A stretch of 64,000 nt of DNA from Acidimicrobiaceae bacterium. Lineage in GTDB: Bacteria > Actinomycetota > Acidimicrobiia > Acidimicrobiales > RAAP-2. The notes beneath the pieces are model-generated. The model ran no database searches and was not told the DNA's origin. It saw only the letters and a list, made by a program, of their open reading frames with translations. Of this stretch, positions 141 through 35,692 are shown piece after piece (position 1 is the first letter of the stretch; each line of letters starts with the position of its first letter). The stretch covers positions 15,977 to 79,976 of the forward strand of contig DAHUZK010000051.1 of the NCBI GenBank assembly GCA_027306605.1, written 5' to 3'. The position numbers were made by a program, and so were the translations under genes.

Positions 141-2117
<1,977 letters not shown>

Positions 2118-2260
2118 TCAGAACTCCGGTCGTCACGGTGCGTATCGAATCCCCGAACGGCGCTCCGTCGGCCTTTCGATGCGAACGCACCATTTTACCC
2201 GACAGTCGTGCCAATTCGGCACGCAATGAACGGTCGGCCCGCTGTCCGCTTCCCCGGCGG

Positions 2261-2572
2261 TCAGGCCCGAGCGACCACGACCTCGACGCGCTGGAGCGGT
2301 GGGCCCTCGGGCATGGCGACCTGTGCCAGGATGCGCCGCGCCTCCATGCGCACCCGGGTCCCCCAGGCGGGATGGTCCACCGCTACGACCAGGGTGCCAC
2401 CGTCGATACGCACCGGCCGCGCGTGGGCCGACAGCTCCGCACCGACCAGCTCGTCCCACCGGCTGAACACGCTCTCCATGGTGGTCGGAGACGGTGGCGC
2501 ACCGAGCCGGCGCAAGAGCCGCGGCATGGATGCCCCGAGGGGCCGGGGGCCGTCCGGACCGCGCGCCCTCAT
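2261..2572 (-). CDS. dciA: DUF721/DciA-like protein (putative replicative helicase operator)
   Basis: 103-aa frame MRARGPDG...VFSRWDELVGAELSAHARPVRIDGGTLVVAVDHPAWGTRVRME. Its ATG overlaps the recF stop as ATGA (2569-2572). It sits between recF and gyrB, as Rv0004 does in mycobacteria. Confidence 0.75.
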   Translation of the reverse strand: MRARGPDGPRPLGASMPRLLRRLGAPPSPTTMESVFSRWDELVGAELSAHARPVRIDGGTLVVAVDHPAWGTRVRMEARRILAQVAMPEGPPLQRVEVVVARA

Positions 2573-3648: not shown

Positions 3649-3660
3649 CGCCGTCCCCGC

Positions 3661-4776: not shown

Positions 4777-5073
4777 CGCGGGCTGTCCTTTCGGGGCGTT
4801 CCCTGATGTTCCATCGTGCAGGGAAGAGTATGTGTGGGTTGTAAAGGTAGTAAGGGCTGTGGACTGTGGAGAATATGGCCGCGGCCCAGGTCAGTGTGGT
4901 TCGCTCCTTCCCCAGCGCGATGGGGGTGGAGCGCGGTGAGGAGCGCGGCCGATTCGTGCCCTGGGGGAAGCTGGGGAAAAGGGCGGGCCGCGTCCCCAGG
5001 ACGCCGGCGCTGGTTCCACAAGCTTTTCCTCTTGCGAACCACAGCTGTCGTCCGTCGCGATTCGGGTGCAGCT
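4777..5073. other. Candidate chromosomal origin oriC (dnaA-dnaN intergenic region)
   Basis: 297-bp non-coding gap in the position oriC occupies in Actinobacteria. It has a locally AT-rich tract (about 4826-4880). Adjacent DnaA-box-like 9-mers sit on the minus strand: TTCTCCACA (4865-4873) and CAGTCCACA (4858-4866). Weaker CCACA-core sites lie at 4833-4841, 4894-4902, 5011-5019 and 5035-5043. Confidence 0.6.
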
Positions 5074-7225: not shown

Positions 7226-7494
7226 ACAGGGAAGACGAACGGCTCAGCCTGCCGGTCCGCGCCGCCGTCGCGCTGGTGAGGCTCTACCAGGGCGCGGCCT
7301 CCGGCCGGATCTCACCGTGCCGGTTCTACCCGAGCTGCTCGAATTACGCCCTCGAGGCCTTCACCGTGCACGGGTTCTGGCGGGGCTTCGCCCTCACGGC
7401 GCGCCGGCTGGTGCGCTGCCGGCCCTTCGGGCCCCACGGTGTCGATCTGGTGCCGCTCCGTGTGCACGCCCATGACGGGGAGGGGCCGTGCTGA
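7216..7494 (+). CDS. yidD: Membrane protein insertion efficiency factor YidD
   Basis: Translation contains LVRLYQGAASGRISPCRFYPSCSNYALEAF, the YidD signature. Start is ATG 7216 or GTG 7222; the latter is better spaced from GGAGG at 7211-7215. Confidence 0.85.
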   Translation: MPVNREDERLSLPVRAAVALVRLYQGAASGRISPCRFYPSCSNYALEAFTVHGFWRGFALTARRLVRCRPFGPHGVDLVPLRVHAHDGEGPC

Positions 7495-8711
7495 GCCATC
7501 CGCTCCTGGCCGAGAACAGCCTGTTCAAGCTGGTCGGGGAGATCTTCCACCCGATCTTCGAGCTGTTCGGGCTGATCCTGGCCGGCCTCTACGCCGTCTG
7601 GCCGAACTACGGGTTCGCCATCACGGGGCTGACGGTCATCATCATGCTGGCGCTGACACCGGTGACGGTGAAGAGCACCAAGTCCATGCTGGCCATGCAG
7701 CGGCTGCAGCCCGAGATGAAGAAGCTCCAGGCCAAGTACAAGGGCGCGGAGAACCGGGAGATGCTCAACCAGGAGATGATGCGTCTCTACAAGGAGAACG
7801 GGACCAGCCCGTTCGGGGCCTGCCTCCCGAGTCTCCTGCAGATGCCCTTCCTGATCGTCCTCTACACCCTGATCCGGGGACTCTCCAACCAGGTCTCGCG
7901 CGGCGCTCAGTACGTCAATCAGTTCGGCCAAAATGCTGTCTGCAAACAAAAGGTGTGTGGAGCGCCCAGGTACATTCCAACTAATTCACAAATGCATCAC
8001 GACCTCGTCGTGAGTCAAGGCCAGATGCATTGGTGGTTCGGGATGGATCTTTCCTCGCTTCCCTTCTCGAATCACGTAACGAGTACTTCCAGCGCAAGCC
8101 AGGCCGTGCTGGTCATCCCCTACCTGGTCCTCATCGCGGCTGCGATGTTCCTGCAGTACTACCAAATGCGGCAGATGAACAATCGTAATCCGCAGGCGGC
8201 AGCGGCGAACAAACAGATGCAGTCGATGCAGAAGTTTTTCCCAATTATCTTCGGTGTCATTTACCTAAGAGTGCCGGCGGGAGCAACGATTTACATGGTG
8301 GTCTCGTCGGCGATGCGCATCGGGACACAAGAGGTGATGTTCAAGACGGGCATGGTGGAACCGGTCGCGGCCGAGCGCGAGATCGGCTCGGCCAAGGAGG
8401 GCAAGGAGAAGGCAGCGGCCAAGGAGGTCACCGCGAAGGAGGAGAAGGCGAAGCCGACTCCTCCTTCGCCCACGGCGAAGAAGAAGTCGACCGCCACCGA
8501 CGGCACGGCTGCCGCGAAGGGGACGTTGCCGCCGGCGAAGTCCGGCACGGGCCGGAATGGCAACCGCAACGGGTACGGGAACGGGCGCAAGCCGACCGGT
8601 GGCGCCCGCAAGGGAAGGACGAACGGCAAGGCGGCTGGCGAGGACGAGGCGGCACCTGCGCCCAAGGCGCATCCGCGGTCGCGCTCCAAGCGTGCCAGAA
8701 AGGCTCGGTAA
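7488..8711 (+). CDS. yidC: Membrane protein insertase YidC with basic Lys/Ala-rich C-terminal tail
   Basis: 407 aa. Conserved 60-kDa-IMP core (MQRLQPEMKKLQAKYKG, PFGACLPSLLQMPFLIVLY, PAGATIYMVVSS). GTG start overlaps the yidD stop. Confidence 0.93.
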   Translation: MLSHPLLAENSLFKLVGEIFHPIFELFGLILAGLYAVWPNYGFAITGLTVIIMLALTPVTVKSTKSMLAMQRLQPEMKKLQAKYKGAENREMLNQEMMRLYKENGTSPFGACLPSLLQMPFLIVLYTLIRGLSNQVSRGAQYVNQFGQNAVCKQKVCGAPRYIPTNSQMHHDLVVSQGQMHWWFGMDLSSLPFSNHVTSTSSASQAVLVIPYLVLIAAAMFLQYYQMRQMNNRNPQAAAANKQMQSMQKFFPIIFGVIYLRVPAGATIYMVVSSAMRIGTQEVMFKTGMVEPVAAEREIGSAKEGKEKAAAKEVTAKEEKAKPTPPSPTAKKKSTATDGTAAAKGTLPPAKSGTGRNGNRNGYGNGRKPTGGARKGRTNGKAAGEDEAAPAPKAHPRSRSKRARKAR

Positions 8712-8715
8712 GAGG

Positions 8716-9759
8716 GTGGAGTGGGTCGAAGTGGCGGGCAAGACGGTCGAGGAGGCGACTGATCGGGCGCTGGAGCAGCTCGGTGTGGCCGAGGGCGATG
8801 CCGAGGTGATCGTCGTCTCGGAGCCCAAGACAGGGCTGTTCGGCCGCATGCGGGTGGAGGCCCGCGTACGCGCCCGCGTGCGGCCCGTCGGTGCGCGTCC
8901 GCGCCGGGAGCGTCCGCGCCGGAGCGAGCGGTCACGGCAGGGGGGCCGCGACGGGGGCCGCCAGGGGGGGCAAAGACAGACATCGGGCTCTGGCTCGGGC
9001 TCGGGGAACCAGAGCCGGTCGGATGCCGGTCGGGGTCAGGCTTCCTCGACGACCTCGGATCGGCCGACCGCCGGCGCAGGCACGAGTCGTTCGGCCCGCC
9101 GGCGGCGGAACAGGCGCAATGGTGCCGGTGCCGGTGCCGGTGCCGGTGCCGGTGCCGGTGCGGTTGCCGGCGCGCGTGAGGTCTCGCAGAACGGCTCCGG
9201 CGCAATGCCCGGGAGCGAGTCCGGGAGCGAGAATGCCCGGGAGCGGGCCACTGAACCGAGGGGAACCGAGGCGAAGGAGACGGAGATGGCCGAAGGAATG
9301 ACGCTCGAGGAGCAGGGCGAGGTCGGTCGGGCCTTCGTGTCCGGCCTTCTCGACGAGCTCGGGATGGAGGGCACGGTCGAGAGCCGGATCCTCGACGAGG
9401 AGACGGTGGAGATCGCCGCCACGGGCGAGGACCTCGGCATGTTGGTCGGCCCCCGTGGTTCGACGCTGCTGGCCCTCCAGGATCTGACGCGGGCCGTCGT
9501 CCAGCGGCAGTGCCCCTCACGGACCGACCGGATCCTCGTCGACGTGGCCGGCTACCGGGAACGTCGATCGGCTGCGCTCACGCGCTTCAGCATGCAGATC
9601 GCCGAGGAGGTCCTGGCGTCGGGTCAGGAGAAGGCACTCGAGCCCATGAGCCCCGCCGATCGCAAGACGGTGCACGACGCGGTCAACGAGATCGAAGGGG
9701 TCGTCACGCGCTCCGAGGGCGAGGACCCGAACCGCCACATCGTCATCTCCCCTGCCTGA
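8716..9759 (+). CDS. jag: Jag/KhpB-like RNA-binding protein (Jag_N + KH + R3H) with long disordered linker
   Basis: GTG 8716 gives VEWVEVAGKTVEEATDRALEQLGV (Jag N-domain). The C-terminus has KH/R3H-like sequence (MSPADRKTVHDAVNEIEGVVTRSEGEDPNRHIVISP). Synteny yidC-jag-rsmG. Confidence 0.85.
   Translation: MEWVEVAGKTVEEATDRALEQLGVAEGDAEVIVVSEPKTGLFGRMRVEARVRARVRPVGARPRRERPRRSERSRQGGRDGGRQGGQRQTSGSGSGSGNQSRSDAGRGQASSTTSDRPTAGAGTSRSARRRRNRRNGAGAGAGAGAGAGAVAGAREVSQNGSGAMPGSESGSENARERATEPRGTEAKETEMAEGMTLEEQGEVGRAFVSGLLDELGMEGTVESRILDEETVEIAATGEDLGMLVGPRGSTLLALQDLTRAVVQRQCPSRTDRILVDVAGYRERRSAALTRFSMQIAEEVLASGQEKALEPMSPADRKTVHDAVNEIEGVVTRSEGEDPNRHIVISPA
9121..9168 (+). repeat. In-frame hexanucleotide microsatellite (GGTGCC)x6 plus degenerate copies, encoding (GA)n in the Jag linker
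   Basis: Direct reading of ggtgccggtgccggtgccggtgccggtgccggtgccggtgcggttgcc. Confidence 0.9.
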
Positions 9760-9769
9760 GGGCGCGCCG

Positions 9770-10498
9770 GTGACCGGCGCCGGTCAAGGTTCTGGCTCCG
9801 GCGCCGCTGATTCCCTACTCGAGGTGTTGGCCGAGGCGCGTCGCGCCGGCTTCCTCGGTCCGGGGTCCCTCGATCTCCAGATCCGCCACGGAGCCGGGTT
9901 CGTCGTGGTCGCCAGAGGTCTCACGGAGGCGGACCCGGCGACGAGAGCAGGGACGGGTCGAACCCGCAGTTCCCGGCCGAGGCTCGTCGACCTGGGATCG
10001 GGCGGTGGCGTGCCTGGTCTGGTCGTCGCCCATTCATGGCCCGAGGTGGAACTGGCGCTGCTCGAGGCGTCACGGCGGCGCTGTGAATTCCTGAGGCGCT
10101 CCATCGCGCAGCTCGGGTTCGATGGCCGGGTGAGCGTGCTGGAGGGTCGGGCCGAAGAGCTGGGTCGTGACCCGGACCTCCGAGGCACCTTCGACGGAGC
10201 CTTTGCCCGGTCCTTCGGGAAACCGGCGGTCGTCGCCGAATGTGCCGCTCCCCTGTTGCGTCCCGGCGGCTGGCTGGTGGTCTCGGAGCCGCCTGCCGAC
10301 GGAGGGGGCATCACGGGCACCGCCCGACCGGAGCGGCAAAGAGAGCGCTGGCCGGCCGACGAGCTCGGCCGACTGGGCCTCGAACCGGGGGTCGCCGTCA
10401 CGGAGGAATTCGAGTACCAGACGCTGCGACAGGCCTTGCCGTGCCCACCCCGCTTTCCCCGCCGCAATGGCGTTCCTGCCAAGAGGCCGCTCTTCTGA
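9770..10498 (+). CDS. rsmG: 16S rRNA (guanine527-N7)-methyltransferase RsmG (GidB)
   Basis: 242 aa with SAM-binding motif LVDLGSGGGVPGLVVA. Position is between jag and parA. Confidence 0.9.
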   Translation: MTGAGQGSGSGAADSLLEVLAEARRAGFLGPGSLDLQIRHGAGFVVVARGLTEADPATRAGTGRTRSSRPRLVDLGSGGGVPGLVVAHSWPEVELALLEASRRRCEFLRRSIAQLGFDGRVSVLEGRAEELGRDPDLRGTFDGAFARSFGKPAVVAECAAPLLRPGGWLVVSEPPADGGGITGTARPERQRERWPADELGRLGLEPGVAVTEEFEYQTLRQALPCPPRFPRRNGVPAKRPLF

Positions 10499-10537
10499 TC
10501 AGGGCCATGGAGCGACTCCGCTTTCTCGGAGCGGTGT

Positions 10538-10553
10538 GGTTCCACGTGAAACA
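10538..10553. promoter_or_regulatory. parS: parS centromere-like site 1
   Basis: GGTTCCACGTGAAACA matches 14 of 16 positions of the canonical parS palindrome TGTTTCACGTGAAACA. Confidence 0.8.
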
Positions 10554-10650
10554 TCTTGACGAGGCTGAGAGTTCTGATCGCTCAGTATTCGACCGGGCAG
10601 GGGTTGCCGTGGAAGCCATCGGGGGCCCGTGCCAAAGGAATCCTGGTCGA

Positions 10651-10666
10651 GGTTTCACGTGAAACA
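10651..10666. promoter_or_regulatory. parS: parS centromere-like site 2
   Basis: GGTTTCACGTGAAACA matches 15 of 16 positions of TGTTTCACGTGAAACA. It lies 113 bp from site 1, upstream of parA. Confidence 0.85.
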
Positions 10667-11083
10667 GCCGTAAGTCTTGACCTCGACGCATGTGCAGGCC
10701 AGGATATGCGTCGTGCTTGGGCGAGTCGGGAACCCTGCTTGATGCGCATCAGGCGCCGGGACAGGGAGTCTCCAGACAAGAGACAGGCAGTTGCCGAACC
10801 AGCTCCGTACGACCAAGAGGTGGGCGTACACGCGGAATCGGGACCGACATCGACAGATCCCGTTCGGAGCCTCGACACCGAAAGCGAAGCCGCACCGGCT
10901 CCTTCGTCACCCGCCCCGGCGTCGGAGCCTCGGCGGCCGGCGCACGCGGCTCGCGTGGAGGATGCCGCCGAGGTGGAACCCGACCGAACACCCCCGGCCG
11001 GCCCGAGCCGGGCCGCTCCAGAGGAGATGCCCGCTCCCCCGCCCCCTGCGCCGCCCGCTGCGTCCACACCCCCGTCTACTCCC

Positions 11084-11200
11084 CCAGTCAGCCCAGTCAG
11101 CCCAGTCAGCCCGGTCAGCCCGGTCGCCGAGGTGGCCACAGCCGAGGTCACCACAGCCGAGGTCACCACAGCCGAGGTCACCACAGCCGAGGTCACCGAG
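11084..11200 (+). repeat. Two adjacent in-frame tandem repeats: 9 nt x5 (CCAGTCAGC, PVS) then 15 nt x5 (GCCGAGGTCACCACA, AEVTT)
   Basis: Read directly. Both periods are multiples of 3 and lie in the parA reading frame, just upstream of ATG 11207. Confidence 0.9.
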
Positions 11201-11206
11201 CCGACC

Positions 11207-12052
11207 ATGCGCCCGCCTTCCATCGGGAGCGATGCCGCCGACCTGTTGAACGGCGCCAAGCCCGAGGTCCGGCCGCTCCCGCGCATCATCGCCGTGGCCA
11301 ACCAGAAGGGTGGCGTCGGCAAGACGACCACGACGGTGAACCTCGGGGCGGCGCTGGCCGAGCAGGGCTACCGCGTGCTCGTCATCGACCTCGACCCACA
11401 GGGCAATGCCACGACGGGACTCGGGGTCGAGGCACGGAACTTCGAATTGTCCATGTACGACGTGATCATGCGGGACCAGCCGCTCGAGGATTGCATCGAG
11501 CCCACGAGTGTCAAGAACCTCTTCGTGGCTCCGGCCACCATCGATCTGGCCGGCGTGGAGATCGAGTTGGTCCCCGCCTTCAGCCGTGAGCTCAAGCTGA
11601 AGAAGGCCATCGACTCGGTGGTCGACGACTTCGACTTCGTCCTCATCGACTGCCCGCCGTCGCTCGGGCTCATCACCGTGAACGGTCTGGCGGCGGCGGA
11701 CGAGGTCCTGGTGCCGATCCAGTGCGAGTACTACGCCCTCGAGGGGCTGAGCCAGCTGTTGCGCAATGTGAACCTGGTCTCGACCAATCTGAACGAGACC
11801 CTGGAAGTCTCGACCATCGTCCTCACGATGTACGACGCCCGGACCCGGCTCTCGGTCGACGTGGCCAACGAGGTGCGGGAGCACTTTGCAGAACGGGTGT
11901 GCCGGATCGTGATCCCTCGGACCGTCCGGCTTTCCGAGGCGCCCTCGTTCGGGCAGCCCATCACGGTGTTCGATCCAGCCTCGCGGGGTGCCGTGGCCTA
12001 CCGCGAGCTGGCCAAGGAGGTGAGCAATGGCGCGCCGCAGCGGACTCGGTAA
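11207..12052 (+). CDS. parA: Chromosome partitioning ATPase ParA/Soj (conservative core; N-terminal extension possible)
   Basis: Deviant Walker A NQKGGVGKTTT follows RIIAVA. The 281-aa core starts at ATG 11207. The same frame is open back to 10556, so upstream starts (for example GTG near 10954 or ATG 10742) cannot be excluded. Confidence 0.9.
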   Translation: MRPPSIGSDAADLLNGAKPEVRPLPRIIAVANQKGGVGKTTTTVNLGAALAEQGYRVLVIDLDPQGNATTGLGVEARNFELSMYDVIMRDQPLEDCIEPTSVKNLFVAPATIDLAGVEIELVPAFSRELKLKKAIDSVVDDFDFVLIDCPPSLGLITVNGLAAADEVLVPIQCEYYALEGLSQLLRNVNLVSTNLNETLEVSTIVLTMYDARTRLSVDVANEVREHFAERVCRIVIPRTVRLSEAPSFGQPITVFDPASRGAVAYRELAKEVSNGAPQRTR

Positions 12053-12977
12053 GGGTCTCAGCGCCCTGATTCCCGGTGAGGTGGTGGGGGAGTCCGACTC
12101 GGCGCTCCGGGTCGTGCCCATCTCCCACATCCGACCCAACGCCTACCAGCCGCGGAGCCATTTCGACGAGGAGTCGATGGCCTCCCTGGCGGCGTCCATC
12201 AAGGCGGTCGGCCTGCTCCAGCCCGTCCTGGTGCGCGAGATCCAGGAGGAGACGGAGAGCTACGAGCTGATCGCGGGGGAGCGGCGTTGGCGAGCCGCCC
12301 GCCGGGCGGGGCTCCAGACCATCCCCGTGCTGGTGCAGGTGGCGGACGACGTCGCGAGCCTGGAGCAGGCTCTCGTCGAGAACCTCCACCGTGTCGACCT
12401 CAACGCCCTCGAGGAAGCCGCGGCCTACCAACAGCTGATTGACGAATTCGGGCTGACCCACGAGCAGGTGGCCAGCCGAATGGGCAAGGGCCGCGCCACC
12501 GTGACCAACACCTTGCGGCTCCTGCAGCTGCCGGCCGGAGCCCAGCGGGCGCTCTCGGAGCGCACCATCTCGGCCGGGCATGCCCGCGCCCTGCTGGGGA
12601 CGCCCGACCGTGTGCTCCAAGAGAGGCTCGTGCTGCGCATCGTCGAGGAGGGCCTGACCGTGCGGGCGGTCGAGGAGCTGGTCCGAACGGGCGGAGCCGA
12701 GCTGCGGGTGGTGCCCAGCGAGCCCGAGCCGCCAACCCCGACAACCAACGGTGTGACGGCGGGCACGGCCGATGGGTCCGCCACGCGCCACGTGCCCGTG
12801 CGCAAGCTGCCCGAGCCGGGTGTGCTCGAGCTCGAGGATCTCCTCTCGACCTACCTCAACACCAGGGTCAAGGTGGACATCCAGAACCGGCGGGGGCGCC
12901 TGGTGGTGGAGTTCGCAACCCTCGAGGACCTCGAGCGCATCTACCGGGCGATGGTGGGCGACGGCGGGGTGGCCTAG
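12027..12977 (+). CDS. parB: Chromosome partitioning protein ParB/Spo0J
   Basis: 316 aa: MARRSGLGKGLSALIPG, the ParB box GERRWRAA and an HTH region. It overlaps the parA 3' end by 26 nt. Confidence 0.93.
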   Translation: MARRSGLGKGLSALIPGEVVGESDSALRVVPISHIRPNAYQPRSHFDEESMASLAASIKAVGLLQPVLVREIQEETESYELIAGERRWRAARRAGLQTIPVLVQVADDVASLEQALVENLHRVDLNALEEAAAYQQLIDEFGLTHEQVASRMGKGRATVTNTLRLLQLPAGAQRALSERTISAGHARALLGTPDRVLQERLVLRIVEEGLTVRAVEELVRTGGAELRVVPSEPEPPTPTTNGVTAGTADGSATRHVPVRKLPEPGVLELEDLLSTYLNTRVKVDIQNRRGRLVVEFATLEDLERIYRAMVGDGGVA

Positions 12978-13158
12978 CCCGGAGGAACCGTCAACGGGCT
13001 GTTCAGCTTCATCCACAACCTGTGCATGACGTTGTGGATTGTCACCTGGTTCACCTGCAGGAGGCTTTGCTCGCGTCACCGTCACACGGGCCGGCGCAGC
13101 GTCCGGCGTCAACCCGGAGCCCGCCCGGCACTGTCTGCCGGAAATTGATTACTGGTAA

Positions 13159-14097
13159 TCACTCCCAGGAGGCGTCGGCCCAGCGCCCCAGCGCGTGCGA
13201 GAGCGCGGCGGCCAGGGCGGGGGCGTGCTCGACCACCGCGCTGGCCGGCCCCACCTCGATGAGGACCGCAGGCATGCGGGTCTCGCGCAGGATCGGCAGG
13301 GCCATGCCGTGCACGCCGCCGTCGGCCACGCCCAACGCCTCGGGGACCGTGCTCTGGACCAGCTCGGCCAGGCGCCGTCCGCCGGGCGAGTCGTCGTGGG
13401 TGCCCGACCAGAACGAGGTGCGGCACGCCGACACGTCGGGGTTGAGGCGCAGCCCGACGAAGACGTCGACCTCGAGCTCGTTGGCCTCCTTGGCCTGCAC
13501 GGTGTCGTCGGGGTGGTGCAGCTCGGTCACCCGGGTCCCGTTGAGGGTGAGGCGGCGCCGCAGGGCACCGGTCACGCTGCCCAGTCCGCCGCTCTCGCCC
13601 ACGGCCAGATGACGGCCGCGCAGTGTCGGAGGGGCGTCGCGCAACGCGGCCCGGGCCCGTACCGCCGAGACCAGCTGGAGCTGGTCGTACCGGGGCTCGA
13701 GGCGGAGGAGCTCGTGCAGGGTGGCCCCGCCCACGATGCCGTCGACCGGGAGCCCGGCGTTGCGCTGGAACTCGCCGAGCGCCCCGACGGTGGCGTCGCC
13801 GAAGATGCCGTCGACGCGCCCGGTGTCGAACCCCAGGCTGCACAGGCGTTGCTGGAGTTCCGCCACGTCGTCACCCCGCAGCATGGGGGTCCGGCGGTAG
13901 AGGAAGCGGTCGCCGAGGCGGAAACCGGCCTCGACCAGCGTGTTCCACGTCTGAGGCCCACAGATCCCGTCGACGCGCAGGCCCCGCAGGCGCTGGAAGG
14001 CCTCCAGCGCGGCCCGCGTCGCCGGTCCGAACTCGCCGTCGACGTCGACCGGCGCGCCGGGGATGACGGCGGTGAGGCGGTGCTGGACGTCGGCCAC
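13159..14097 (-). CDS. cwlM: CwlM-like protein: two PG_binding_1 repeats + N-acetylmuramoyl-L-alanine amidase (Amidase_3) domain
   Basis: Two peptidoglycan-binding repeats (VDGEFGPATRAALEAFQRLRGLRVDGICGPQTW and VDGIFGDATVGALGEFQRNAGLPVDGIVG) are followed by an amidase_3-like C-terminus. Synteny with trxB-trxA matches mycobacterial cwlM. The start is uncertain. GTG 14097 is the first canonical start after the trxA stop, but the first PG-binding repeat appears to begin a few codons upstream. Confidence 0.8.
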   Translation of the reverse strand: MADVQHRLTAVIPGAPVDVDGEFGPATRAALEAFQRLRGLRVDGICGPQTWNTLVEAGFRLGDRFLYRRTPMLRGDDVAELQQRLCSLGFDTGRVDGIFGDATVGALGEFQRNAGLPVDGIVGGATLHELLRLEPRYDQLQLVSAVRARAALRDAPPTLRGRHLAVGESGGLGSVTGALRRRLTLNGTRVTELHHPDDTVQAKEANELEVDVFVGLRLNPDVSACRTSFWSGTHDDSPGGRRLAELVQSTVPEALGVADGGVHGMALPILRETRMPAVLIEVGPASAVVEHAPALAAALSHALGRWADASWE

Positions 14098-14132
14098 CGC
14101 GTCACCGCGGTCGCCGAGAGCGAGCGGCAGCC

Positions 14133-14459
14133 CTACAGGTAGGCCGAGATCTCCTCGAGCAGCTGGCCCTTGGGCTTGGCCCCGATCAGGCGTACCTGGG
14201 GCTCGCCGTCCTTGAACAGGATCAGCGTGGGGATGCTCATCACGTCGAAGCGGCGCGTCACGTCGAGGTTGTCGTCGATGTTGAGCTTGCCGATCCGAAT
14301 CTTGCCCGCGTGCTCCTCCGCGATCTCCTCCAGGACCGGAGAGATCATCTTGCACGGGCCGCACCATTCCGCCCAGAAGTCCACCAGCACGGGGACATCC
14401 GAACTCTTGACATGCTCGTCAAACGTAGCGTCGGTCAGCGTCTCGATCTTCTCGCTCAT
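14133..14459 (-). CDS. trxA: Thioredoxin
   Basis: 108 aa with the WAEWCGPCK active site. AAGGAG lies upstream of the ATG. Confidence 0.96.
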   Translation of the reverse strand: MSEKIETLTDATFDEHVKSSDVPVLVDFWAEWCGPCKMISPVLEEIAEEHAGKIRIGKLNIDDNLDVTRRFDVMSIPTLILFKDGEPQVRLIGAKPKGQLLEEISAYL

Positions 14460-14508
14460 GCCATCTCCTTGTCAGCGGGTGTGACGCCGCCTCCTCGTCA
14501 GCGGGTGT

Positions 14509-14534
14509 AACGCCACGCCCTGTCGTTCTGTTCC
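14509..14534 (-). promoter_or_regulatory. Candidate ECF (SigH/SigR-type) promoter for trxA: GGAAC-N17-CGTT
   Basis: The minus strand reads GGAAC agaacgacagggcgtgg CGTT, about 50 nt upstream of the trxA ATG. This matches the GGAA(C/T)-N17-18-(C)GTT pattern of thiol-stress ECF sigma promoters known to drive trx genes in Streptomyces and Mycobacterium. Confidence 0.45.
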
Positions 14535-14603
14535 CCGTTTCGGGCTCGGCCGCCCTTTGCCCATGAATCCTCCCGGCGCTTCGTCGCAGGGCCGGGTCCG
14601 CGC

Positions 14604-15593
14604 CTATTCGCCCTGCGTCTCCAGCCAGCGCTCGGCGTCGATGGCGGCCATGCAGCCCGACCCGGCCGAGGTCACGGCCTGGCGGTAGTAGTCGTCCTGG
14701 ACGTCGCCGCAGGCGAAGACCCCCTCGACGCTGGTCCGGGTGGTGCCGTCGAACGTGCGGACATAGCCATTGTCGGCCAGCTCGACCTGCCCCTTGAGCA
14801 GGGACGAATTGGGCTCGTGGCCTATGGCGACGAAGAGGCCGGTCGCATCGAGCTCGGACTCTTGACCGCTCACCGTGTCGCGCAGGCGCAGACCCGCCAC
14901 CTTGGTGTCGCCGAGGATGTCGGTCACCACCGAGTTCCACCTGAACTCGATCTTGGGGTTGGCGAAGGCGCGCTCTTGCATGATCTTCGAGGCGCGCAGC
15001 TGGTCGCGGCGGTGGATGATGGTCACCTTGGAGGCGAAGCGCGTGAGGAAGCTGGCTTCCTCGATCGCCGAGTCCCCGCCGCCGGCCACGGCGATGTGCT
15101 GGTCCCGGAAGAAGAAGCCGTCGCAGGTGGCGCAGGTCGACACGCCGTAGCCGAGCAGCCGTGCCTCGTTGGCGACGCCCAGCATGAGGGAGCGGGCACC
15201 CGTGGCCACGATGACCGCGTCGGCCGTCACGGTCGGCGCGTCGGCCGCGGGGTCTCCGATCCAAAGCTCGAAGGGCCGGGGCCCCAGCTCGAGGCGACTG
15301 ACCTTGGCGACGCGCAGCTCGGCGTCGAAGCGCAGGGCCTGGGCCCGCATGATGCCCATCAGCTCGGGCCCCATGATCCCGTCCACGAAGCCGGGATAGT
15401 TCTCCACCTCGGTCGTGAGCATGAGCTGGCCGCCGGGCTGGTCGCTCGTGGAGGAGGGCTCGCCCTCGATGACGAGCGGCTCGAGCTGGGCTCGCGCCGT
15501 GTAGAGGGCGGCGGTCAGGCCGGCGGGCCCGCTGCCGATGATGACGACCTTGCGGTGCTCGGGCCGGTGCGCCGTCGGCGCCCCCTCAGGCAT
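14604..15593 (-). CDS. trxB: Thioredoxin-disulfide reductase
   Basis: 329 aa with FAD motif [14 protein letters not shown], redox-active CATCDG and NADPH motif. Confidence 0.96.
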
Positions 15594-30127: not shown

Positions 30128-31084
30128 CTAGGTCGCCGAGGTACCGCGGGCGGCGGGCAGGACGAAGCGGTCGACCGCACGGGCGAAGCCCTCGTCCTCG
30201 TTGCTGCTCGTCGTGTGCCGGGCCGCCCGCTTCACCTGGGGGTCGGCGTTGCCCATGGCGATGCTCAGCCCGGAATGGGCGAACATCAAGATGTCGTTGG
30301 GCATGTCACCGATGGTGGCGATCTGCACGGGGTCGAGCGCGTAGCGCGACGCCAGGTAGCGGGCGACGGAGCCCTTGTTGGCTTTCGGATGCGTGACGTC
30401 GAGGTAGTAGGGCTGTGAAGCGGCAGCGGTGACGTGGTGGCCGAAGGTGTCGGCGGCCGCCTCGGCCGCCTTCTGCACGGCGCCGTGGTCGTCGCTCACC
30501 CCGACGAGCTTGACGACGCCGTCGGTCAGCCCATCGAGGCCGTCCATCACCTTGGGCTCGAACTTGACCGTCCACGCCTCGCGGTCGACATGGGGCCCTT
30601 TGGGATCGCGCACGTACCAGTCGGCACCGCGGTAGAGCCACACGTCGAGGTCGAAAGAGCCCATCAGGTCGGCCACCGGTTGCACCACGTGCTCGGGCAG
30701 GACGTGTTGCTCGAGGGTCTCCATGGCACGGTCCACGACCAGCCCGCCGTTGAAGGCGGCGATGGAGGTCTCGAGCTCGAGCGGCTCGACCAGCATCTCC
30801 ATGCCACGGGGTGGGCGCCCGCTCGTGATGGCGAAGAGCACACCCGCGTCGTGCAGGCGCTGCACGGCGGCGACCGCCTCGTCGGTCAGGACCTTGTCCT
30901 CGGTGACCAGGGTCCCGTCCACGTCGGCCAGCAGCAGGCGGACGGGCAGGGACGGCGCCGAGGGCTCGGACGGCGCGGACGGCGCGGGAGCCGGCGGCGG
31001 AGCGGGCGGAACGCTCGAGGATCCTGAGGATTCGGGGGCGATGGGGCCGATGGTACCGGCCCGACCCGGGTATACACGGTGCAT
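30128..31084 (-). CDS. HAD-superfamily hydrolase, Cof-type phosphatase, with Pro/Ser-rich N-terminal leader
   Basis: Motif I LLLADVDGTLV, plus TSGRPP and GDMPNDILMF. The nearest canonical start upstream of motif I is ATG 31084 (alternative 31150). Confidence 0.8.
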   Translation of the reverse strand: MHRVYPGRAGTIGPIAPESSGSSSVPPAPPPAPAPSAPSEPSAPSLPVRLLLADVDGTLVTEDKVLTDEAVAAVQRLHDAGVLFAITSGRPPRGMEMLVEPLELETSIAAFNGGLVVDRAMETLEQHVLPEHVVQPVADLMGSFDLDVWLYRGADWYVRDPKGPHVDREAWTVKFEPKVMDGLDGLTDGVVKLVGVSDDHGAVQKAAEAAADTFGHHVTAAASQPYYLDVTHPKANKGSVARYLASRYALDPVQIATIGDMPNDILMFAHSGLSIAMGNADPQVKRAARHTTSSNEDEGFARAVDRFVLPAARGTSAT

Positions 31085-31493
31085 GGTCCACGACGCCCAC
31101 GAGCGGATCCCCGACAGCCACCGCGACCTCCTCGACGCCCGTTTCGCCACGCTGGCGACCGTCGGCGGGGACGGATACCCCCAGCTCTCGGAGGTGTGGT
31201 TCCTGGCCGAGGAGGATCAGGTCTGCATCTCGCTCAACCGGGCGCGGCAGAAGACCAAGAACCTCCTGGCGGAGCCCAACTGCACCGTGTTCATCCTCGA
31301 CCTGGCCAACCCGTACCGCTATCTCGAGATTCGCGGCACGGCCGACGTGACATCCGACGACGACCGGGCCTTCGCCGACCGCGTCGGCGCCAAGTACGGG
31401 GCCGATTTGCGCGACCACGATCTCCCCGGCGACACCCGGGTCGTGGTGCGCGTCGTGCCCGTGCGCGTCAACGCGGTGGACATGAGCCGCTGA
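31083..31493 (+). CDS. Pyridoxamine 5'-phosphate oxidase family (PPOX / F420-binding split-barrel) protein
   Basis: 136 aa: MVHDAHERIPDSHRDLLDARFATLATVGGDGYPQLSEVWF...FILDLANPYRYLEIRGTA. Confidence 0.75.
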   Translation: MVHDAHERIPDSHRDLLDARFATLATVGGDGYPQLSEVWFLAEEDQVCISLNRARQKTKNLLAEPNCTVFILDLANPYRYLEIRGTADVTSDDDRAFADRVGAKYGADLRDHDLPGDTRVVVRVVPVRVNAVDMSR

Positions 31494-32242
31494 GCAACGG
31501 GTGCCAGCGCGGCGGCCAACGCGGCCACCAGCACGGCCACCAGCACGGCCAGTGCCACCCAGGGCGACAGGGCGAGGCCGAGGGCCAGTGCCGATGCGGT
31601 CTCGACCGCCACCACCACCCAGAGAGCGACGGGGTCGAGAGCCGTGAAGCGGCGATGGAAGGCAGCGAGTGCGGCCGGGCTGGTGATGCGGCGCCCGAGC
31701 AGGACGGCCAGACCGCGCACCAGGCCGAAGAGGAGGCCCAGCGCGAGCGCCACCCAGGGCGACGCGGTCAGCGCGGCCAGGACGACCATCAGGTACACGG
31801 CGGCCGTCTTGATATAGGTGGCGAAGCCGCTGCCGATCTGCCAGCCGAAACCGGCGCCGTAGACCCAGGAGCGGAACTGGTCCAGCCAGCGCTCGTTGAC
31901 CTGGCGATGGTGGACCGGCAGCGTGAAGCCCCCGAGGCGCCGGTCCGACGCGGCGGCGAAGGCGCAGCCGGCGCAGGCCAACGCGGCCACCACCGCCGGC
32001 GACGGCCCGGCGGCACGGACGGCGAGGGCAGCCATGGCCAGGGCCAGGCCGAGCGTGGCCCCACCGGCGACGGCACCGGCCACGAACCACCGCGCCGTGC
32101 TGCGGTAGCGGTGGCCCCGGCCGGACTCGGCCAGCGGGGTGACCGTGGCCAGCATCGAGATGCCGCACGGCGACCACGTCGAGCGCACTGCTGCCGCCGT
32201 CGTGACGAGCGCGGCCGAGCCGACGAGAAGGGTGGTGGTCAC
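31319..32242 (-). CDS. Polytopic membrane protein (about 8 TM), last gene of the Mau-like operon; function unknown
   Basis: AAGGAG-5 nt-GTG start at 32242. Hydrophobic throughout, with motifs STWSPCGISML and ALACAGCAF. The first 205 codons of track ORF 31319..32857 are a shadow of the propeller gene. Confidence 0.65.
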   Translation of the reverse strand: MTTTLLVGSAALVTTAAAVRSTWSPCGISMLATVTPLAESGRGHRYRSTARWFVAGAVAGGATLGLALAMAALAVRAAGPSPAVVAALACAGCAFAAASDRRLGGFTLPVHHRQVNERWLDQFRSWVYGAGFGWQIGSGFATYIKTAAVYLMVVLAALTASPWVALALGLLFGLVRGLAVLLGRRITSPAALAAFHRRFTALDPVALWVVVAVETASALALGLALSPWVALAVLVAVLVAALAAALAPVAQRLMSTALTRTGTTRTTTRVSPGRSWSRKSAPYLAPTRSAKARSSSDVTSAVPRISR

Positions 32243-32276
32243 GGGAACTCCTTTCGGGTCGTTGGGGGCGGGCGGC

Positions 32277-33677
32277 TCATGCGGGCGAACCGAGGAACGG
32301 GGCACCACCGAAGGCGAAGATGCCGCCGTCGGAGGCCACCATCCAGTACCCGGCGTCGTCGCGGTAGACGGCCATGCCGACGACGGGGCGGGCCAGGACG
32401 AGCGAGCCGGTCGACCCGTCGAACGCGGCGTCGCCGAAGGCGAAGATGCCGCCGTCGGAGGCCACCAGCCAGTAGCCCCGGCCGCTCGGCGTGGCCGCCA
32501 TGCCCACCACGGGCTTGTTGAGCGGCGTGCCGCCCATGGAGCCGAGAAAGGGCGCGTCGCCGAAGGCGAAGATCCCGCCGTCGGCGGCCACCATCCAGTA
32601 GCCCCGGCCGCTCGGCGTGGCCGCCATGCCCACCACGGGCTTGTTGAGTGGCGTGCCGCCCATGGAGCCGAGAAAGGGCGCGTCGCCGAAGGAGAAGAGG
32701 CCGCCGTCGGCGGCCACCATCCAGTAGCCCCCTCCCGTGGGCGTGCCGGCGATACCCACCACGGGTGCGTTGAGATGCTGTCCGCCCATCGACCCGAGGA
32801 ACGGGGCCCCGCCGTAGTCGAAGATGCCGCCGTCGGCGGCCGCCAGCCAGTAGCCACCGGTGTGGCACAGGGCCGCTCCGACCACCGGGGCGTCCAGCGG
32901 CAGGCCCGACGCGTCGCCCGCGCTGACGAAGTCGCCGTAGGGGAGCAGCTTGCCGAACGCGGTCAGCACGGCGTACCCACGGTCGTCGGCGCTGGGGAGC
33001 AGGCCGACCGACTGGCAATTGGTGGCCGGCGAGTTGCACGGGGGTGCCGGCGGCGCCGGTGTCCAGCACGGCTCGTTCTGCTCCGCCGTGGCGTTGTCGA
33101 CCGCCACCGCGGTGGTGCACGACGGGTCGACCGTCCAGGGCGGGACGCAGGCGACGACGCGGCACACGATGCGACCCAGGCACGCCACGTTCTGGTTGCA
33201 CTGCCCGTAACGGAACTGCAGGCATCCGGTCAGGAAGGAGTCACACCCTTGGGACCCGCAGCCGCAGCTGAGCCCGTCGCACTGCGTCTCGCAGAACGGG
33301 AAGCCGCTGGCGCATCCGGCGTCACAGGCACAGGTCGCGTTGCAGTCCATGTAGTAGCGGGGGCCGTTGCAGTAGGACGATCCCTCTGCCACCCACCAGC
33401 CGCCCATGATCGTGTTCTCGGGACAGTAGTTGTCGCCGCTGACGGCGCAGCAGAACTCCGAGAAGCCCGAGCAGCAGGTGCTCCCGCAGCTGCACCCCGC
33501 GTTCCCGCACTGGCAGATGGCGCCGTAGGCCGTGCCCGGCCGCAAGGCAAGATCGAGGCCGGACCCGATGGCCACGGCGCTGCCCACGAAGGCGGAGCGG
33601 TTGATGAGGCTACGGCGCGACAACCGGCCCTCCAGGGCGCGCGCCGTGCGCGTCACCAGCGCGGTGGAGAAGCTCAC
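32277..33677 (-). CDS. Tat-signal protein: 28-Cys MauA-light-chain-like module fused to a six-blade (about 42-aa repeat) beta-propeller-like domain
   Basis: Twin-arginine motif LSRRSLINRSAFVGSAVAIGSG. Cys-rich region at residues 55-221 (nt 33015-33515) includes CCAVSGDNYCPENTIMGGWWVAEG..YYMDC. Six repeats follow of GYW(M/L)VA(A/S)DGGIFAFGDAPFLGSMGG..LN.PVVGMA (nt 32280-32981). The GTG start overlaps the upstream stop (GTGA). Confidence 0.8.
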   Translation of the reverse strand: MSFSTALVTRTARALEGRLSRRSLINRSAFVGSAVAIGSGLDLALRPGTAYGAICQCGNAGCSCGSTCCSGFSEFCCAVSGDNYCPENTIMGGWWVAEGSSYCNGPRYYMDCNATCACDAGCASGFPFCETQCDGLSCGCGSQGCDSFLTGCLQFRYGQCNQNVACLGRIVCRVVACVPPWTVDPSCTTAVAVDNATAEQNEPCWTPAPPAPPCNSPATNCQSVGLLPSADDRGYAVLTAFGKLLPYGDFVSAGDASGLPLDAPVVGAALCHTGGYWLAAADGGIFDYGGAPFLGSMGGQHLNAPVVGIAGTPTGGGYWMVAADGGLFSFGDAPFLGSMGGTPLNKPVVGMAATPSGRGYWMVAADGGIFAFGDAPFLGSMGGTPLNKPVVGMAATPSGRGYWLVASDGGIFAFGDAAFDGSTGSLVLARPVVGMAVYRDDAGYWMVASDGGIFAFGGAPFLGSPA

Positions 33678-34243
33678 GACGATGCCGCCGCCTCGGTCCG
33701 GGGCCGGATCAGGCGGCGGGCGCCCTCCAGCGCGCCCAGCGCGGACAGGGCCAGGAGGCTGAGCCAGAGCGCGACGGCGCTGACGAAGACCAGCGGCACG
33801 CCGGCCCAGGGCTGGTGCGCCAGCAGCGTGAAGAGAGTGCCGTGTGCCGGTGCGGTGACGGCGACGACGGCTGCCGCCACCGCCAGGGTCAGATCCAACA
33901 GCAGGTGCACGAGGGTGGGCGGCGTGTCGGGCTTGCCGAAGCAGCCGCAGGTGGCCAGCGGGCCGCCGCGGCGCCAGGCCGAGGCGACGACGGCCGCGAA
34001 GGCTGCGTAGGAGAGCGAGACGAGGGCCGCAGTGACGGGCCGCGGCGCCACCAGGGCGGCGATGCCCAGGAGCATTTCGACCAGTGCACCGGTGCGGACG
34101 GCCGTGCGCGTGACGCGCCAGAGCCGGGCGCGACCGGCCAGCTCGGAGAGGGCGCGCGCCGTGTCGTCGGGTCGAGCGGCCTTCGCCGCGCCGGCGACGA
34201 CGAGGAGGTCCGCGGCCACCAGGTAGGGACCGATCAGTTCCAC
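33674..34243 (-). CDS. MauE/DoxX-family redox-associated membrane protein
   Basis: 189 aa from GTG 34243. Four to five TM helices and the CGCFG motif (LATCGCFGKPDTPPTLVHLLLD) characteristic of MauE-like proteins. Confidence 0.7.
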   Translation of the reverse strand: MELIGPYLVAADLLVVAGAAKAARPDDTARALSELAGRARLWRVTRTAVRTGALVEMLLGIAALVAPRPVTAALVSLSYAAFAAVVASAWRRGGPLATCGCFGKPDTPPTLVHLLLDLTLAVAAAVVAVTAPAHGTLFTLLAHQPWAGVPLVFVSAVALWLSLLALSALGALEGARRLIRPRTEAAASS

Positions 34244-34722
34244 AGCGGCCTCGCCGCCGGGAGCCCGGGTGCAGTCGCCGTCACGCCCAGGGCCGTGACG
34301 AGCTGGTTGAGGCGCGGCACCAGGACGTGGCGCATGGTGTGGCTGCCGAGGACGGCGTAGAAGGAGAAGGGACGGCCCGCCTCGGTGAAGAACCACTGCG
34401 TGCCCGACTGCCCGGGCAGGCCACGGCGCAACATGGTGGGCGAGAAGTCGGCCGCAGCGAGCGCGGCCGGCCGACCCTGGCGCGCGAAGAGCGCGGTGCC
34501 CAGGCTCTCGGGTCCGTACTCGAAGAGCGTGGCGAACACGTCGCCCGGACCCATCAGGTTCACGGCACCGCTGCCGAAGTCGCCGACCTCGTCGGGGATC
34601 GGGAATGTCGCGAACTGCGCCACCGGATAGGTGGGGCCGACCGCCGAGGGCCGGACGTAGATGCGGCCCTCGAAACCCTGCGGCAGGCGGGCCGTGATCC
34701 CGTGCGCACCGATGGTGGCCAT
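34234..34722 (-). CDS. Hypothetical protein, no signal peptide, embedded in the Mau-like operon
   Basis: ATG 34722 (MATIGAHGITARLPQGFEGRIYV...) lies 4 nt after the upstream stop. 162 aa. High-GC3 coding frame. No motif recognised. Confidence 0.55.
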   Translation of the reverse strand: MATIGAHGITARLPQGFEGRIYVRPSAVGPTYPVAQFATFPIPDEVGDFGSGAVNLMGPGDVFATLFEYGPESLGTALFARQGRPAALAAADFSPTMLRRGLPGQSGTQWFFTEAGRPFSFYAVLGSHTMRHVLVPRLNQLVTALGVTATAPGLPAARPLWN

Positions 34723-34726
34723 CGGT

Positions 34727-35575
34727 TCAGCTCCGGTGGGGGAACACGTCGTCGAGGGTGCGCGGATAGAGGCTCGGGTCGCCCGGATGGATGCCGGCGG
34801 CCCGCAGCACCTCGTCGGCCGCGGCCTCGCGCTCGGGTCCGCCCAGGGCCGGATCGTTCCGGCGGCCCCGACGGCGGTTCCGTCCGCGGTCCCCGCCGCG
34901 GCTGGCGTCCCCGCCGCGGTCGTGCTCGGCGCGCCGTACCAGATCGACCAACTGCCCGACGTGGTTCGCCACGCCTTGGCCGACCTTGGTGCCGGTGGCA
35001 CCGTCGACGAGGACGAAGAAGGGGGAGCCCGGTACCTGGTACTCGAGCCAGGCCTCGGTCGACATGACCACCGGGACCTGCCCCGTGGCGCGGGCACGTA
35101 CCTCGCTCGGGACCTCGCGGTCGGGACCCTTGGTGACGATCACGGCGCGGGTGCCGGCGGGCAGGTCGAGGCGACCGGGGTGCCCGAGCGCCTCCCAGAA
35201 GCCGGCGCAGCTGGCACAGCCCGACGAGAGAAAGGCCAGCAGCGTGAGCCCGTCGCTGTTGGTGACCGAGATGGCCCGGGCGTCGCCGGCGGGTGTCCGG
35301 CCGGCGATGGTGGGGGCGGGCCCGAGGGGCGGGGCCGGCGCGGCCGTGGGCGCCAGAGTGGTGGGCGCCAGCGTGGGGGGAGCGGCCCCGGTGGCGGTGG
35401 CGGTGGCCGCGGCGGGGGCGGGGGTGGCCGCGCCGGCCTCGAGCACCGGGTCACCGACGCCGACACCGAGCTCGTGCAGCGATCGCAGGATGTCCGCATG
35501 GCTGCGCAGGAGTCCCGCCACCAGGACTCCGAGGACCAACACCGCGAACGTCGACACCACGACGAGAGCGATCAC
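34727..35575 (-). CDS. Membrane-anchored TlpA/MauD-like thioredoxin-fold protein (CxxC = CASC) with Arg/Gly/Asp-rich tail
   Basis: AGGAG-5 nt-GTG 35575. N-terminal TM helix (VIALVVVSTFAVLVLGVLVAGLL), an Ala/Pro/Thr linker and a thioredoxin fold LLAFLSSGCASCAGFW...GSPFFVLVD. Only the last 282 aa of the 711-aa track ORF are used. Confidence 0.75.
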   Translation of the reverse strand: MIALVVVSTFAVLVLGVLVAGLLRSHADILRSLHELGVGVGDPVLEAGAATPAPAAATATATGAAPPTLAPTTLAPTAAPAPPLGPAPTIAGRTPAGDARAISVTNSDGLTLLAFLSSGCASCAGFWEALGHPGRLDLPAGTRAVIVTKGPDREVPSEVRARATGQVPVVMSTEAWLEYQVPGSPFFVLVDGATGTKVGQGVANHVGQLVDLVRRAEHDRGGDASRGGDRGRNRRRGRRNDPALGGPEREAAADEVLRAAGIHPGDPSLYPRTLDDVFPHRS

Positions 35576-35692
35576 GCCGGCTCCTTTCCCCGTCCGCCCA
35601 TACCGTCTTCCCAGTATCCACCCGATGCCGCAGCCGGGCGCGGCATCCCGGGGCGGACGCATCGGGGCGCGCTCCTCGGGCATACTCCGGAC

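Follow-up and report, generated by a model that had tools for sequence, protein, structure and literature searches.

A conserved actinobacterial operon joins relatives of MauF, MauE and MauD to a cysteine-rich protein with a twin-arginine leader

The operon and its five products

The stretch of DNA analysed here, called the window throughout, comprises 64,000 nucleotides (nt) of an Acidimicrobiaceae bacterium (assembly GCA_027306605.1, contig DAHUZK010000051.1, positions 15,977 to 79,976) with a G+C content of about 70%. Its minus strand carries five co-directional genes between positions 31319 and 35575, as read from that strand and the list of open reading frames (ORFs). An earlier annotation made from the letters alone, below called the sequence-only reading, had described them as a redox operon resembling the mau genes of methylamine dehydrogenase (MADH), in the absence of the dehydrogenase itself. 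We number the genes g1 to g5 in the direction of reading, with product lengths in amino acids (aa).

34727-35575, minus strand: g1, 282 aa, membrane-anchored, MauD-like CxxC protein
34234-34722, minus strand: g2, 162 aa, cytoplasmic protein of a family without known relatives
33674-34243, minus strand: g3, 189 aa, MauE-family membrane protein
32277-33677, minus strand: g4, 466 aa, leader of the twin-arginine translocation (Tat) type, cysteine-rich domain and beta-propeller
31319-32242, minus strand: g5, 307 aa, MauF-homologous polytopic membrane protein

The genes follow each other closely, and all the junctions given in the sequence-only reading are found in the sequence and the ORF list: a gap of 4 nt between g1 and g2 (34723-34726), an overlap of 10 nt between g2 and g3 (34234-34243), a GTGA overlap between g3 and g4 (33674-33677), and a spacer of 34 nt between g4 and g5, with AAGGAG placed 7 nt 5' of the GTG start at 32242. 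The two overlaps point to translational coupling from g2 to g3 and from g3 to g4. An NCBI contig has products of exactly 189, 466 and 307 aa on record, the sizes of g3, g4 and g5.

Given the identity of g5, the link to the mau genes is stronger than first supposed. The sequence-only reading had left this product without a name, as a membrane protein with eight transmembrane (TM) segments. A g5 profile (alignment A4) matches MauF of Paracoccus denitrificans in hhalign with a probability of 98.2% (E 6.3e-14, 162 columns) and in hmmsearch with E 1.6e-14; in a pairwise BLASTP comparison the two are 30% identical (E 3e-7), and MauF as a tblastn query finds the position of g5 in 80 related loci. MauF and g5 have the motif STWSPCG in common, and R-x-x-W-S-P-C26-G is invariant in the g5 family. 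By these comparisons g5 is a MauF homologue, and the operon therefore holds the whole MauF/MauE/MauD trio of small-subunit maturation. That Pfam and NCBIfam scans are silent on g5 is explained by MauF itself, which has no model in either. Two other assignments were discarded: a DsbD/CcdA-like protein, suggested by the SPC motif, finds no Pfam DsbD match in g5 or in 18-20 orthologues, and MauF explains the motif better; a profile match to a GAPDH in the PDB (E 0.25) is spurious.

That g5 is a membrane protein stands, but the count of eight TM segments is insecure. The conserved core covers about aa 1-240 (about 31523-32242), and similarity among orthologues, most of them 250-290 aa long, stops near residue 240. 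The 3' end of g5 (31319-31493, the last ~60 codons) runs antisense through a convergent plus-strand gene at 31083-31493 for an F420-dependent PPOX-class oxidoreductase (TIGR03618, 103.6 bits against a cut-off of 79, with a Pfam PNPOx_N match), an overlap of 175 nt. As the overlapping tail is unconserved, it has the look of read-through in an antisense frame that is rich in G+C and poor in stop codons.

The second member of the trio, g3, had been described as a MauE-like membrane protein with a CGCFG motif, and a profile search bears this out: it passes Pfam MauE (PF07291) with E 5.7e-16 and a score of 59.4 bits, the cut-off being 27. The motif C99-G-C101-F-G is conserved in orthologues, and K21 in TM1 and E56 in TM2 are kept in at least 90% of 81 of them. 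In a 2026 preprint, two MauE proteins replace DsbB in Escherichia coli, and this activity is linked to a CXC motif followed by F-G, a lysine in TM1 and a glutamate in TM2 (bioRxiv 10.64898/2026.03.05.709764). The g3 protein has all these features, with the motif in a loop that hydropathy places outside the cytoplasm. In a set of relatives MauE and the cysteine-rich protein are joined as one product (P0013, 652 aa; P0110, 661 aa; P0107, 518 aa; further representatives P0126, P0129, P0152, P0239 and P0266). These may be true fusions or gene-calling artefacts at an overlap of the GTGA type.

The third member, g1, is a membrane-anchored CxxC protein and a remote relative of MauD that becomes visible by profile comparison only. 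It has a single hydrophobic segment (aa 1-19, an N-terminal anchor), a Pro/Ala-rich linker, a conserved C-terminal tail and just two cysteines, in C120-A-S-C123. Both cysteines, P182, P185 and a VPGSP loop are invariant among orthologues. A profile of 20 orthologues (alignment A5) matches P. denitrificans MauD in hhalign with a probability of 94.5% (E 7.9e-8, 103 columns), hmmsearch gives E 7e-8, and the same profile finds weak matches to StoA and a DsbC-like chain in the PDB (E about 0.5).

The protein between them, g2, lacks a signal peptide, TM segments and cysteines. It matches nothing in Pfam or NCBIfam, and a profile search of the PDB was also empty. It was considered as a MauJ, and comparison with MauJ showed no relation.

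What remains is g4, which consists of three parts.

33522-33677, minus strand: g4 leader, aa 1-52, twin-arginine-type signal peptide
33015-33521, minus strand: g4 cysteine-rich domain, aa 53-221, 28 cysteines
32277-33014 (stop codon included), minus strand: g4 beta-propeller, six repeats of ~42 aa

The leader has a conserved helical n-region, the sequence S-R-R-S-L-I-N, an h-region and a predicted cleavage site at A-Y-G|A. R21 and R22 are invariant across a diverse alignment of the family (A2). A relative of g4 at locus L083 scores above the cut-off of the Tat-signal model TIGR01409, with no match reported for g4 of the window at E up to 0.1, and some relatives bear the NCBI name 'twin-arginine translocation signal domain-containing protein'. 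In its signal g4 thus fits a Tat substrate, and export by this route is predicted. The sequence-only description as a Tat-signal protein with 28 cysteines and a propeller holds for all three parts, but the cysteines number 29 in total: 28 lie within residues 55-221, and C271 sits in the first propeller blade.

The cysteine-rich domain of ~170 residues defines a family of its own, with invariant GWW, RYxxDC, FRYGQC and CRxxxC motifs. In A2 (42-62% overall identity) 13 cysteines are invariant and 5 more at least 90% conserved, along with G93-W94-W95, R107, D111, F155-R156-Y157-G158 and R173; family members carry 17-28 cysteines. Clustering at 50% identity divides the family into 467 groups, and a survey of 185,579 species genomes places it at 585 loci or more. 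The closest relatives come from metagenome-assembled genomes of Acidimicrobiaceae, and every relative with a name belongs to the Actinomycetota (Acidimicrobiales, Iamia, Aquihabitans, Pseudonocardiales, Jatrophihabitans). Neither g4 alone nor its profile matches Pfam, NCBIfam or PDB sequences in this domain. AlphaFold2 (AF2) left it unmodelled when given 37 close orthologues, with a predicted local distance difference test (pLDDT) below 50; a more diverse alignment gave pLDDT 77-91 over most of aa 60-200, with 72 at 151-160. A Foldseek search of this model against the PDB returned nothing below E = 2.

The propeller repeats the pattern GYWxVAxDGGIFxFGDAxFxGS six times, with three strands per repeat in an AF2 model whose pLDDT is at least ~90 in aa 221-420 and 83-89 beyond. 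Foldseek finds generic WD40-like propellers only (E about 5e-9, TM-score 0.5-0.6). In relatives it is replaced by SLH, CWB2, LGFP, DUF4214 or B_lectin domains or is absent altogether, and many members of the family are ~205 aa long. Because wall- and glycan-binding modules interchange behind a conserved head, the cysteine-rich head would be the functional part and the protein probably held at the envelope, with the propeller of g4 as an interchangeable anchoring or binding module.

Some details of these appendages may be added. Many relatives of ~305-330 aa (for instance at L083 8001-8948 and among P0287-P0380) end in a bulb-type lectin domain, PF01453, for which the top-scoring NCBIfam model, that of the putidacin L1 lectin-like bacteriocin family, reaches 43.8 bits where 275 would be needed; a few relatives of the cysteine-rich domain carry PF26607. 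Inside the propeller coding region of g4 lies a terminator-like hairpin (32699-32715, minus strand; 7-bp GC stem and T-rich tail), one found against 0.9 expected and hence no more than chance would give.

Conservation and surroundings of the gene set

Do the five genes belong together? They recur in the same order at the loci of ~80 Acidimicrobiales species. Searched by tblastn with the five window proteins, 82 such loci contain each single gene in 76 to 82 cases (g2 in 80), and the absences fall at contig ends, while the flanking genes vary from locus to locus. Three distant actinobacterial loci, whose cysteine-rich proteins are 42-50% identical to g4, hold all five families with E values of 1e-22 to 1e-92 (1e-39 to 5e-49 for g2). 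Here the order has changed, to g3-g1-g2-g4-g5 in L083 and L085 and to g3-g4-g1-g5-g2 in L084. This arrangement is far beyond chance, and the co-occurrence across Actinomycetota, put forward earlier as a point to be checked by comparing neighbourhoods, is borne out both within the Acidimicrobiales and in the three distant loci.

Other mau genes are missing from this picture. With P. denitrificans MauB, MauG and MauC (amicyanin) as tblastn queries at E up to 1, the window is empty, and the best match anywhere in 85 related loci has E 0.44. MauA, MauJ, MauM and MauN likewise gave no significant match in the window or in the 85 loci, and no predicted gene of the window encodes a CxxCH motif. The earlier statement that the 64 kb contain no mauB, mauG, mauC or c-type cytochrome gene thus stands, and for MauB, MauG and MauC it extends to the related loci.

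Upstream of g1, the operon is separated from a divergent amidohydrolase gene by a short intergenic region.

35576-35692, no strand assigned: divergent intergenic region, with ribosome-binding site AAAGGAG at 35581-35587, two boxes and an inverted repeat
35611-35620, no strand assigned: box TGGATACTGG, conserved 5' of g1 in close relatives
35674-35690, no strand assigned: box CCGGAGTATGCCCGAGG, conserved 5' of g1 in close relatives

Both boxes contain an ATACT core and are kept in roughly 15-25 close Acidimicrobiaceae relatives, TGGATACTGG in more. They may be -10 elements of divergent transcripts, candidates picked out by their conservation; a scan of the region for the sigma-70 consensus found nothing, and a terminator scan was uninformative. 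CCGGAGTATGCCCGAGG ends 2 nt before the GTG start of the amidohydrolase at 35693, a start picked by a heuristic based on third-position G+C (GC3), and the mRNA of this gene might be leaderless. The 8-bp inverted repeat noted earlier, GATGCCGC-N8-GCGGCATC, does exist at 35624-35647, but its frequency is at chance level: when the 117-bp spacer is shuffled, 6.9% of the results contain an 8-bp repeat whose arms are up to 20 nt apart, as do 11.5% of all tiles of 117 bp in the window. Its second arm is unconserved in orthologous promoters. On both grounds we discard it as an operator.

In the syntenic locus L001, Pfam annotation places the cluster in a housekeeping region adjoining dnaB and ribosomal protein genes, and in the window, too, an rpsF-ssb-rpsR-rplI-dnaB block lies just downstream of g5, at the 3' end of the operon. 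The window appears to span the region of the chromosomal origin (141-6141 and 7488-15593), with ORFs that read from their N-terminal sequences as gyrB, recF, dnaN and dnaA, followed by yidC-like, parB-like and trxB-like genes. Between 16840 and 21038 on the minus strand a lipid II flippase of the MurJ family (727 aa) is followed by a DUF6049 protein (686 aa, with a signal-like start), and the two ORFs overlap by ~50 nt.

The cysteine-rich protein and the MADH light chain

The sequence-only reading proposed that the module serves a client other than the MADH light chain MauA. In favour of this, g4 is a cysteine-rich Tat protein that does not match the light-chain family PF02975 at E up to 0.1, where MauA of P. 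denitrificans scores 180 bits. Yet g4 may be a very diverged relative of MauA. It sits in the MauA slot relative to the P. denitrificans order mauF-B-E-D-A. Both proteins contain N-x-C-P-P-G-T, 4-6 residues and W, then Y-x-D-C. The leaders of g4 and of MauA and its counterpart AauA of aromatic amine dehydrogenase (AADH) are unusually long, with an n-region of ~20 residues, predicted to be helical, in front of T/S-S-R-R-S/G-F-L.

How far does this resemblance carry? A comparison with a single MauA sequence aligned 12 columns only. Against an alignment of eight MauA/AauA sequences (A6), hhalign reports a probability of 95.7% (E 9.5e-9) over 141 columns; W95 falls on betaTrp57, a residue of the tryptophan tryptophylquinone (TTQ) cofactor, and D111 on the catalytic betaAsp76, and nothing in A2 aligns with betaTrp108. 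With the leaders removed the probability drops to 14% (P = 0.002), about equal to the best of 100 column shuffles (empirical p about 0.01-0.03). Most of the signal between MauA and g4 therefore lies in the leader. This likeness of leaders could mean a common leader-recognition factor. Searched with the A2 profile, the PDB, MADH and AADH light chains included, yields no match up to E 10, and Foldseek with the model of the cysteine-rich domain returns no MADH chain. By these measures homology is marginal and a common ancestry of g4 and MauA possible. A TTQ-type cofactor is unlikely because MauG is absent.

MauA-like proteins of Thermomicrobium roseum, one with a GGAWW motif, were tried as a bridge and do not link both families. 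Their locus (L094, plasmid NC_011961.1, 717-9349) contains two MauA-like genes, one of them an unannotated ORF ending at 6315, along with a gene for a protein of 596 aa that ends in a MauE domain and one that is Redoxin-like. The annotation of this stretch shows neither MauB nor MauG, and large hypothetical proteins without a Pfam family lie between the genes.

A bolder view would make the g4 domain a new kind of domain at the cell surface, redox-active or catalytic, with an ancestor in common with the MADH light chain. Its invariant W94-W95 pair, with D111 aligned to betaAsp76, would carry a tryptophan-derived or cross-linked cofactor made without MauG. We regard this as a long shot. If true, it would add a new cofactor-bearing protein family and reveal the step performed by MauF, MauE and MauD, which would then be an ancient core machinery for building disulfide-knotted, tryptophan-modified domains.

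A proposed maturation pathway and its alternatives

The cysteine-rich Tat protein g4 is the obvious client of the helper proteins. We consider it moderately probable, from the gene content, that the operon encodes a client and, dedicated to it, a self-contained pathway of maturation on the MauF/MauE/MauD pattern. In this scheme g4 would be made with its long twin-arginine leader and exported by Tat. Outside the membrane g1, with its MauD-like CxxC, would fold the 28-cysteine domain oxidatively by inserting disulfides, and g3, as an analogue of DsbB with a CGC motif, would re-oxidise g1 and pass the electrons to respiratory quinone, a direction of flow that we infer. With its single conserved membrane-embedded cysteine in WSPCG, g5 would act in the same step as MauF in the biogenesis of the MADH small subunit, and its task at the membrane is probably to pass on, retain or proof-read the client. 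A client-specific cytoplasmic factor is the most likely role for g2, which possibly acts as a chaperone of the long conserved Tat leader. Work of the 1990s ascribed to van der Palen et al. and Chistoserdov et al. reportedly found MauF, MauE and MauD each to be needed for accumulation of the small subunit, itself cysteine-rich and with a Tat leader.

Several points weigh against this scheme. Tat usually moves folded proteins, which fits awkwardly with disulfide folding after export, although MauA poses the same paradox. The biochemical role of MauF is, to our knowledge, unsettled even in the canonical system, and that of g5 in maturation of the client is a guess by analogy. The chaperone role of g2, a protein with no detectable relatives, is putative. 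The g1 protein reaches 18.5 bits against the NCBIfam MauD model TIGR02661, whose cut-off is 188.6, and passes no Pfam family, the thioredoxin families included; 18-20 orthologues scanned singly give isolated sub-threshold thioredoxin matches at most. Of the earlier label of a MauD/TlpA-like thioredoxin, the relation to MauD, the membrane anchor and the CxxC are thus retained, but no thioredoxin threshold in Pfam is passed. Finally, if MauE is a generalist, as the preprint argues, g3 and g1 could serve many substrates and g4 would merely be linked to them.

This last point can be widened into an explanation of its own: g1, g3 and g5 would form a general extracytoplasmic disulfide machinery, an alternative to DsbA with DsbB or VKOR, with g4 and g2 as mere neighbours. 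The housekeeping region around the cluster, near dnaB and ribosomal protein genes, would suit such a role. So would the preprint, in which two MauE proteins replace DsbB in E. coli and MauE is argued to be a generalist, accompanied by MauA in only 10% of MauE-carrying species (bioRxiv 10.64898/2026.03.05.709764). Against mere neighbourhood, however, the five genes move jointly into unrelated genomic contexts and stay together under shuffled order, which is unexpected for chance neighbours, and overlaps couple the translation of g2 with g3 and of g3 with g4. The set moreover includes a MauF homologue, and we know of no MauF homologues that act as general folding factors. On balance we find this explanation unlikely. 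The same grade goes to one that takes the resemblance to MauA at face value, with g4 as a very diverged member of the MADH/AADH light-chain superfamily that carries a tryptophan-derived cofactor and works as a surface dehydrogenase of amines or other substrates with no need of MauG. The N-terminal domain would then stand for the small subunit, and the propeller fused to it for the large one; in MADH the large subunit forms a propeller of seven blades, and g4, too, has a propeller. A gene context resembling mauF-(B)-E-D-A agrees with this, as do the 95.7% hhalign match with its two superposed residues, the CPPGT before that tryptophan and the long Tat leaders in both families. Set against these are the fall to 14%, at the level of the best shuffles, once the leaders are gone, the negative outcomes with PF02975, with the profile in the PDB and with Foldseek, and the missing counterpart of betaTrp108. 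Six different genomic contexts contain no MauG or CxxCH protein, and the propeller is dispensable, many members being ~205 aa long or ending in LGFP, SLH or lectin domains. We therefore think such a dehydrogenase improbable.

Could the locus instead make a ribosomal cysteine-rich secreted product, either akin to the peptides that are ribosomally synthesised and modified after translation (RiPPs) or a bacteriocin-like toxin, with g4 as precursor or toxin and the redox proteins as tailoring enzymes? There is some precedent, as decRiPPter flagged Streptomyces clusters with mauE, one of them with mauD, beside precursors with at least 8 cysteines as candidate RiPP families (PMC7794033), and the lectin domain of some family members is nearest to putidacin-type bacteriocins, at the 43.8 bits against 275 given above. 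But a Tat protein of 466 aa and several domains is not a short leader-plus-core precursor, the neighbours in the loci compared include no protease, ABC exporter (by Pfam) or immunity gene, and SLH, CWB2 and LGFP domains attach proteins to the producer's own wall. We hold a product of this kind to be very unlikely.

A dedicated pathway for g4 can be set beside several known systems. The mau clusters of P. denitrificans and Methylobacterium extorquens resemble it in that homologues of MauF, MauE and MauD adjoin a cysteine-rich protein with a long Tat leader, and in the motifs STWSPCG (MauF and g5), CGC (MauE and g3) and CxxC (MauD and g1). The operon here differs in having no MauB, MauG, amicyanin, MauJ, MauM or MauN. 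Its client has 28 cysteines in ~170 residues, as opposed to 12 in the 125 of MauA, and in the family is fused to wall- or glycan-binding modules, and the cytoplasmic g2 is an addition. The host is an actinobacterium of the Gram-positive type and so has no periplasmic electron chain to amicyanin. The pathway of DsbA with DsbB or VKOR follows the logic proposed here, from a quinone-linked membrane oxidase to a CxxC protein of thioredoxin fold and on to exported substrates. It differs from our scheme in its membrane protein, to which MauE is unrelated, and in lacking the MauF-like and cytoplasmic parts and the single dedicated substrate.

Closer in time are reports of MauE outside mau clusters. 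The stand-alone MauE of Gonzalez et al. (bioRxiv 10.64898/2026.03.05.709764) is alike in Pfam family, in the CXC-F-G motif with lysine and glutamate, in the absence of MauA and in an expected thioredoxin-fold partner. It differs as a generalist from Calditrichota and Thermodesulfobacteriota, as against a five-gene module with one client, and the module finds no mention in the sections of the preprint consulted. The Streptomyces clusters (PMC7794033) are alike in being actinobacterial and in having mauE (in one family mauD) with no other mau genes and a cysteine-rich neighbour. They are set apart, going by their description, by short peptides predicted by machine learning in place of a large multidomain Tat client, and a MauF homologue and g2 are unreported there. 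MauE activity beyond mau clusters is thus partly anticipated by these two sources. The sequence-only reading had been aware of no described function for the arrangement, and this holds in part: the module, its MauF homologue, the cysteine-rich Tat family and g2 are undescribed in the literature searched, but MauE outside mau clusters is already published.

What does the operon add to the study of these helpers? The trio persists as a unit without a dehydrogenase in hundreds of actinobacterial species, tied to one exported client. That MauF, MauE and MauD are required for the small subunit of MADH has been known for about 30 years, their biochemical roles being unsettled all the while. A disulfide-forming activity of MauE was shown only in 2026, in the preprint (bioRxiv 10.64898/2026.03.05.709764). 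The module offers an independent and simpler system for dissecting each helper, as no TTQ chemistry, large subunit or periplasm is involved. It also defines two unannotated protein families, the 28-cysteine domain with its 467 clusters and the cytoplasmic g2. For the organisms themselves it suggests that Acidimicrobiia of soil and peat display a conserved, disulfide-knotted domain at their envelope.

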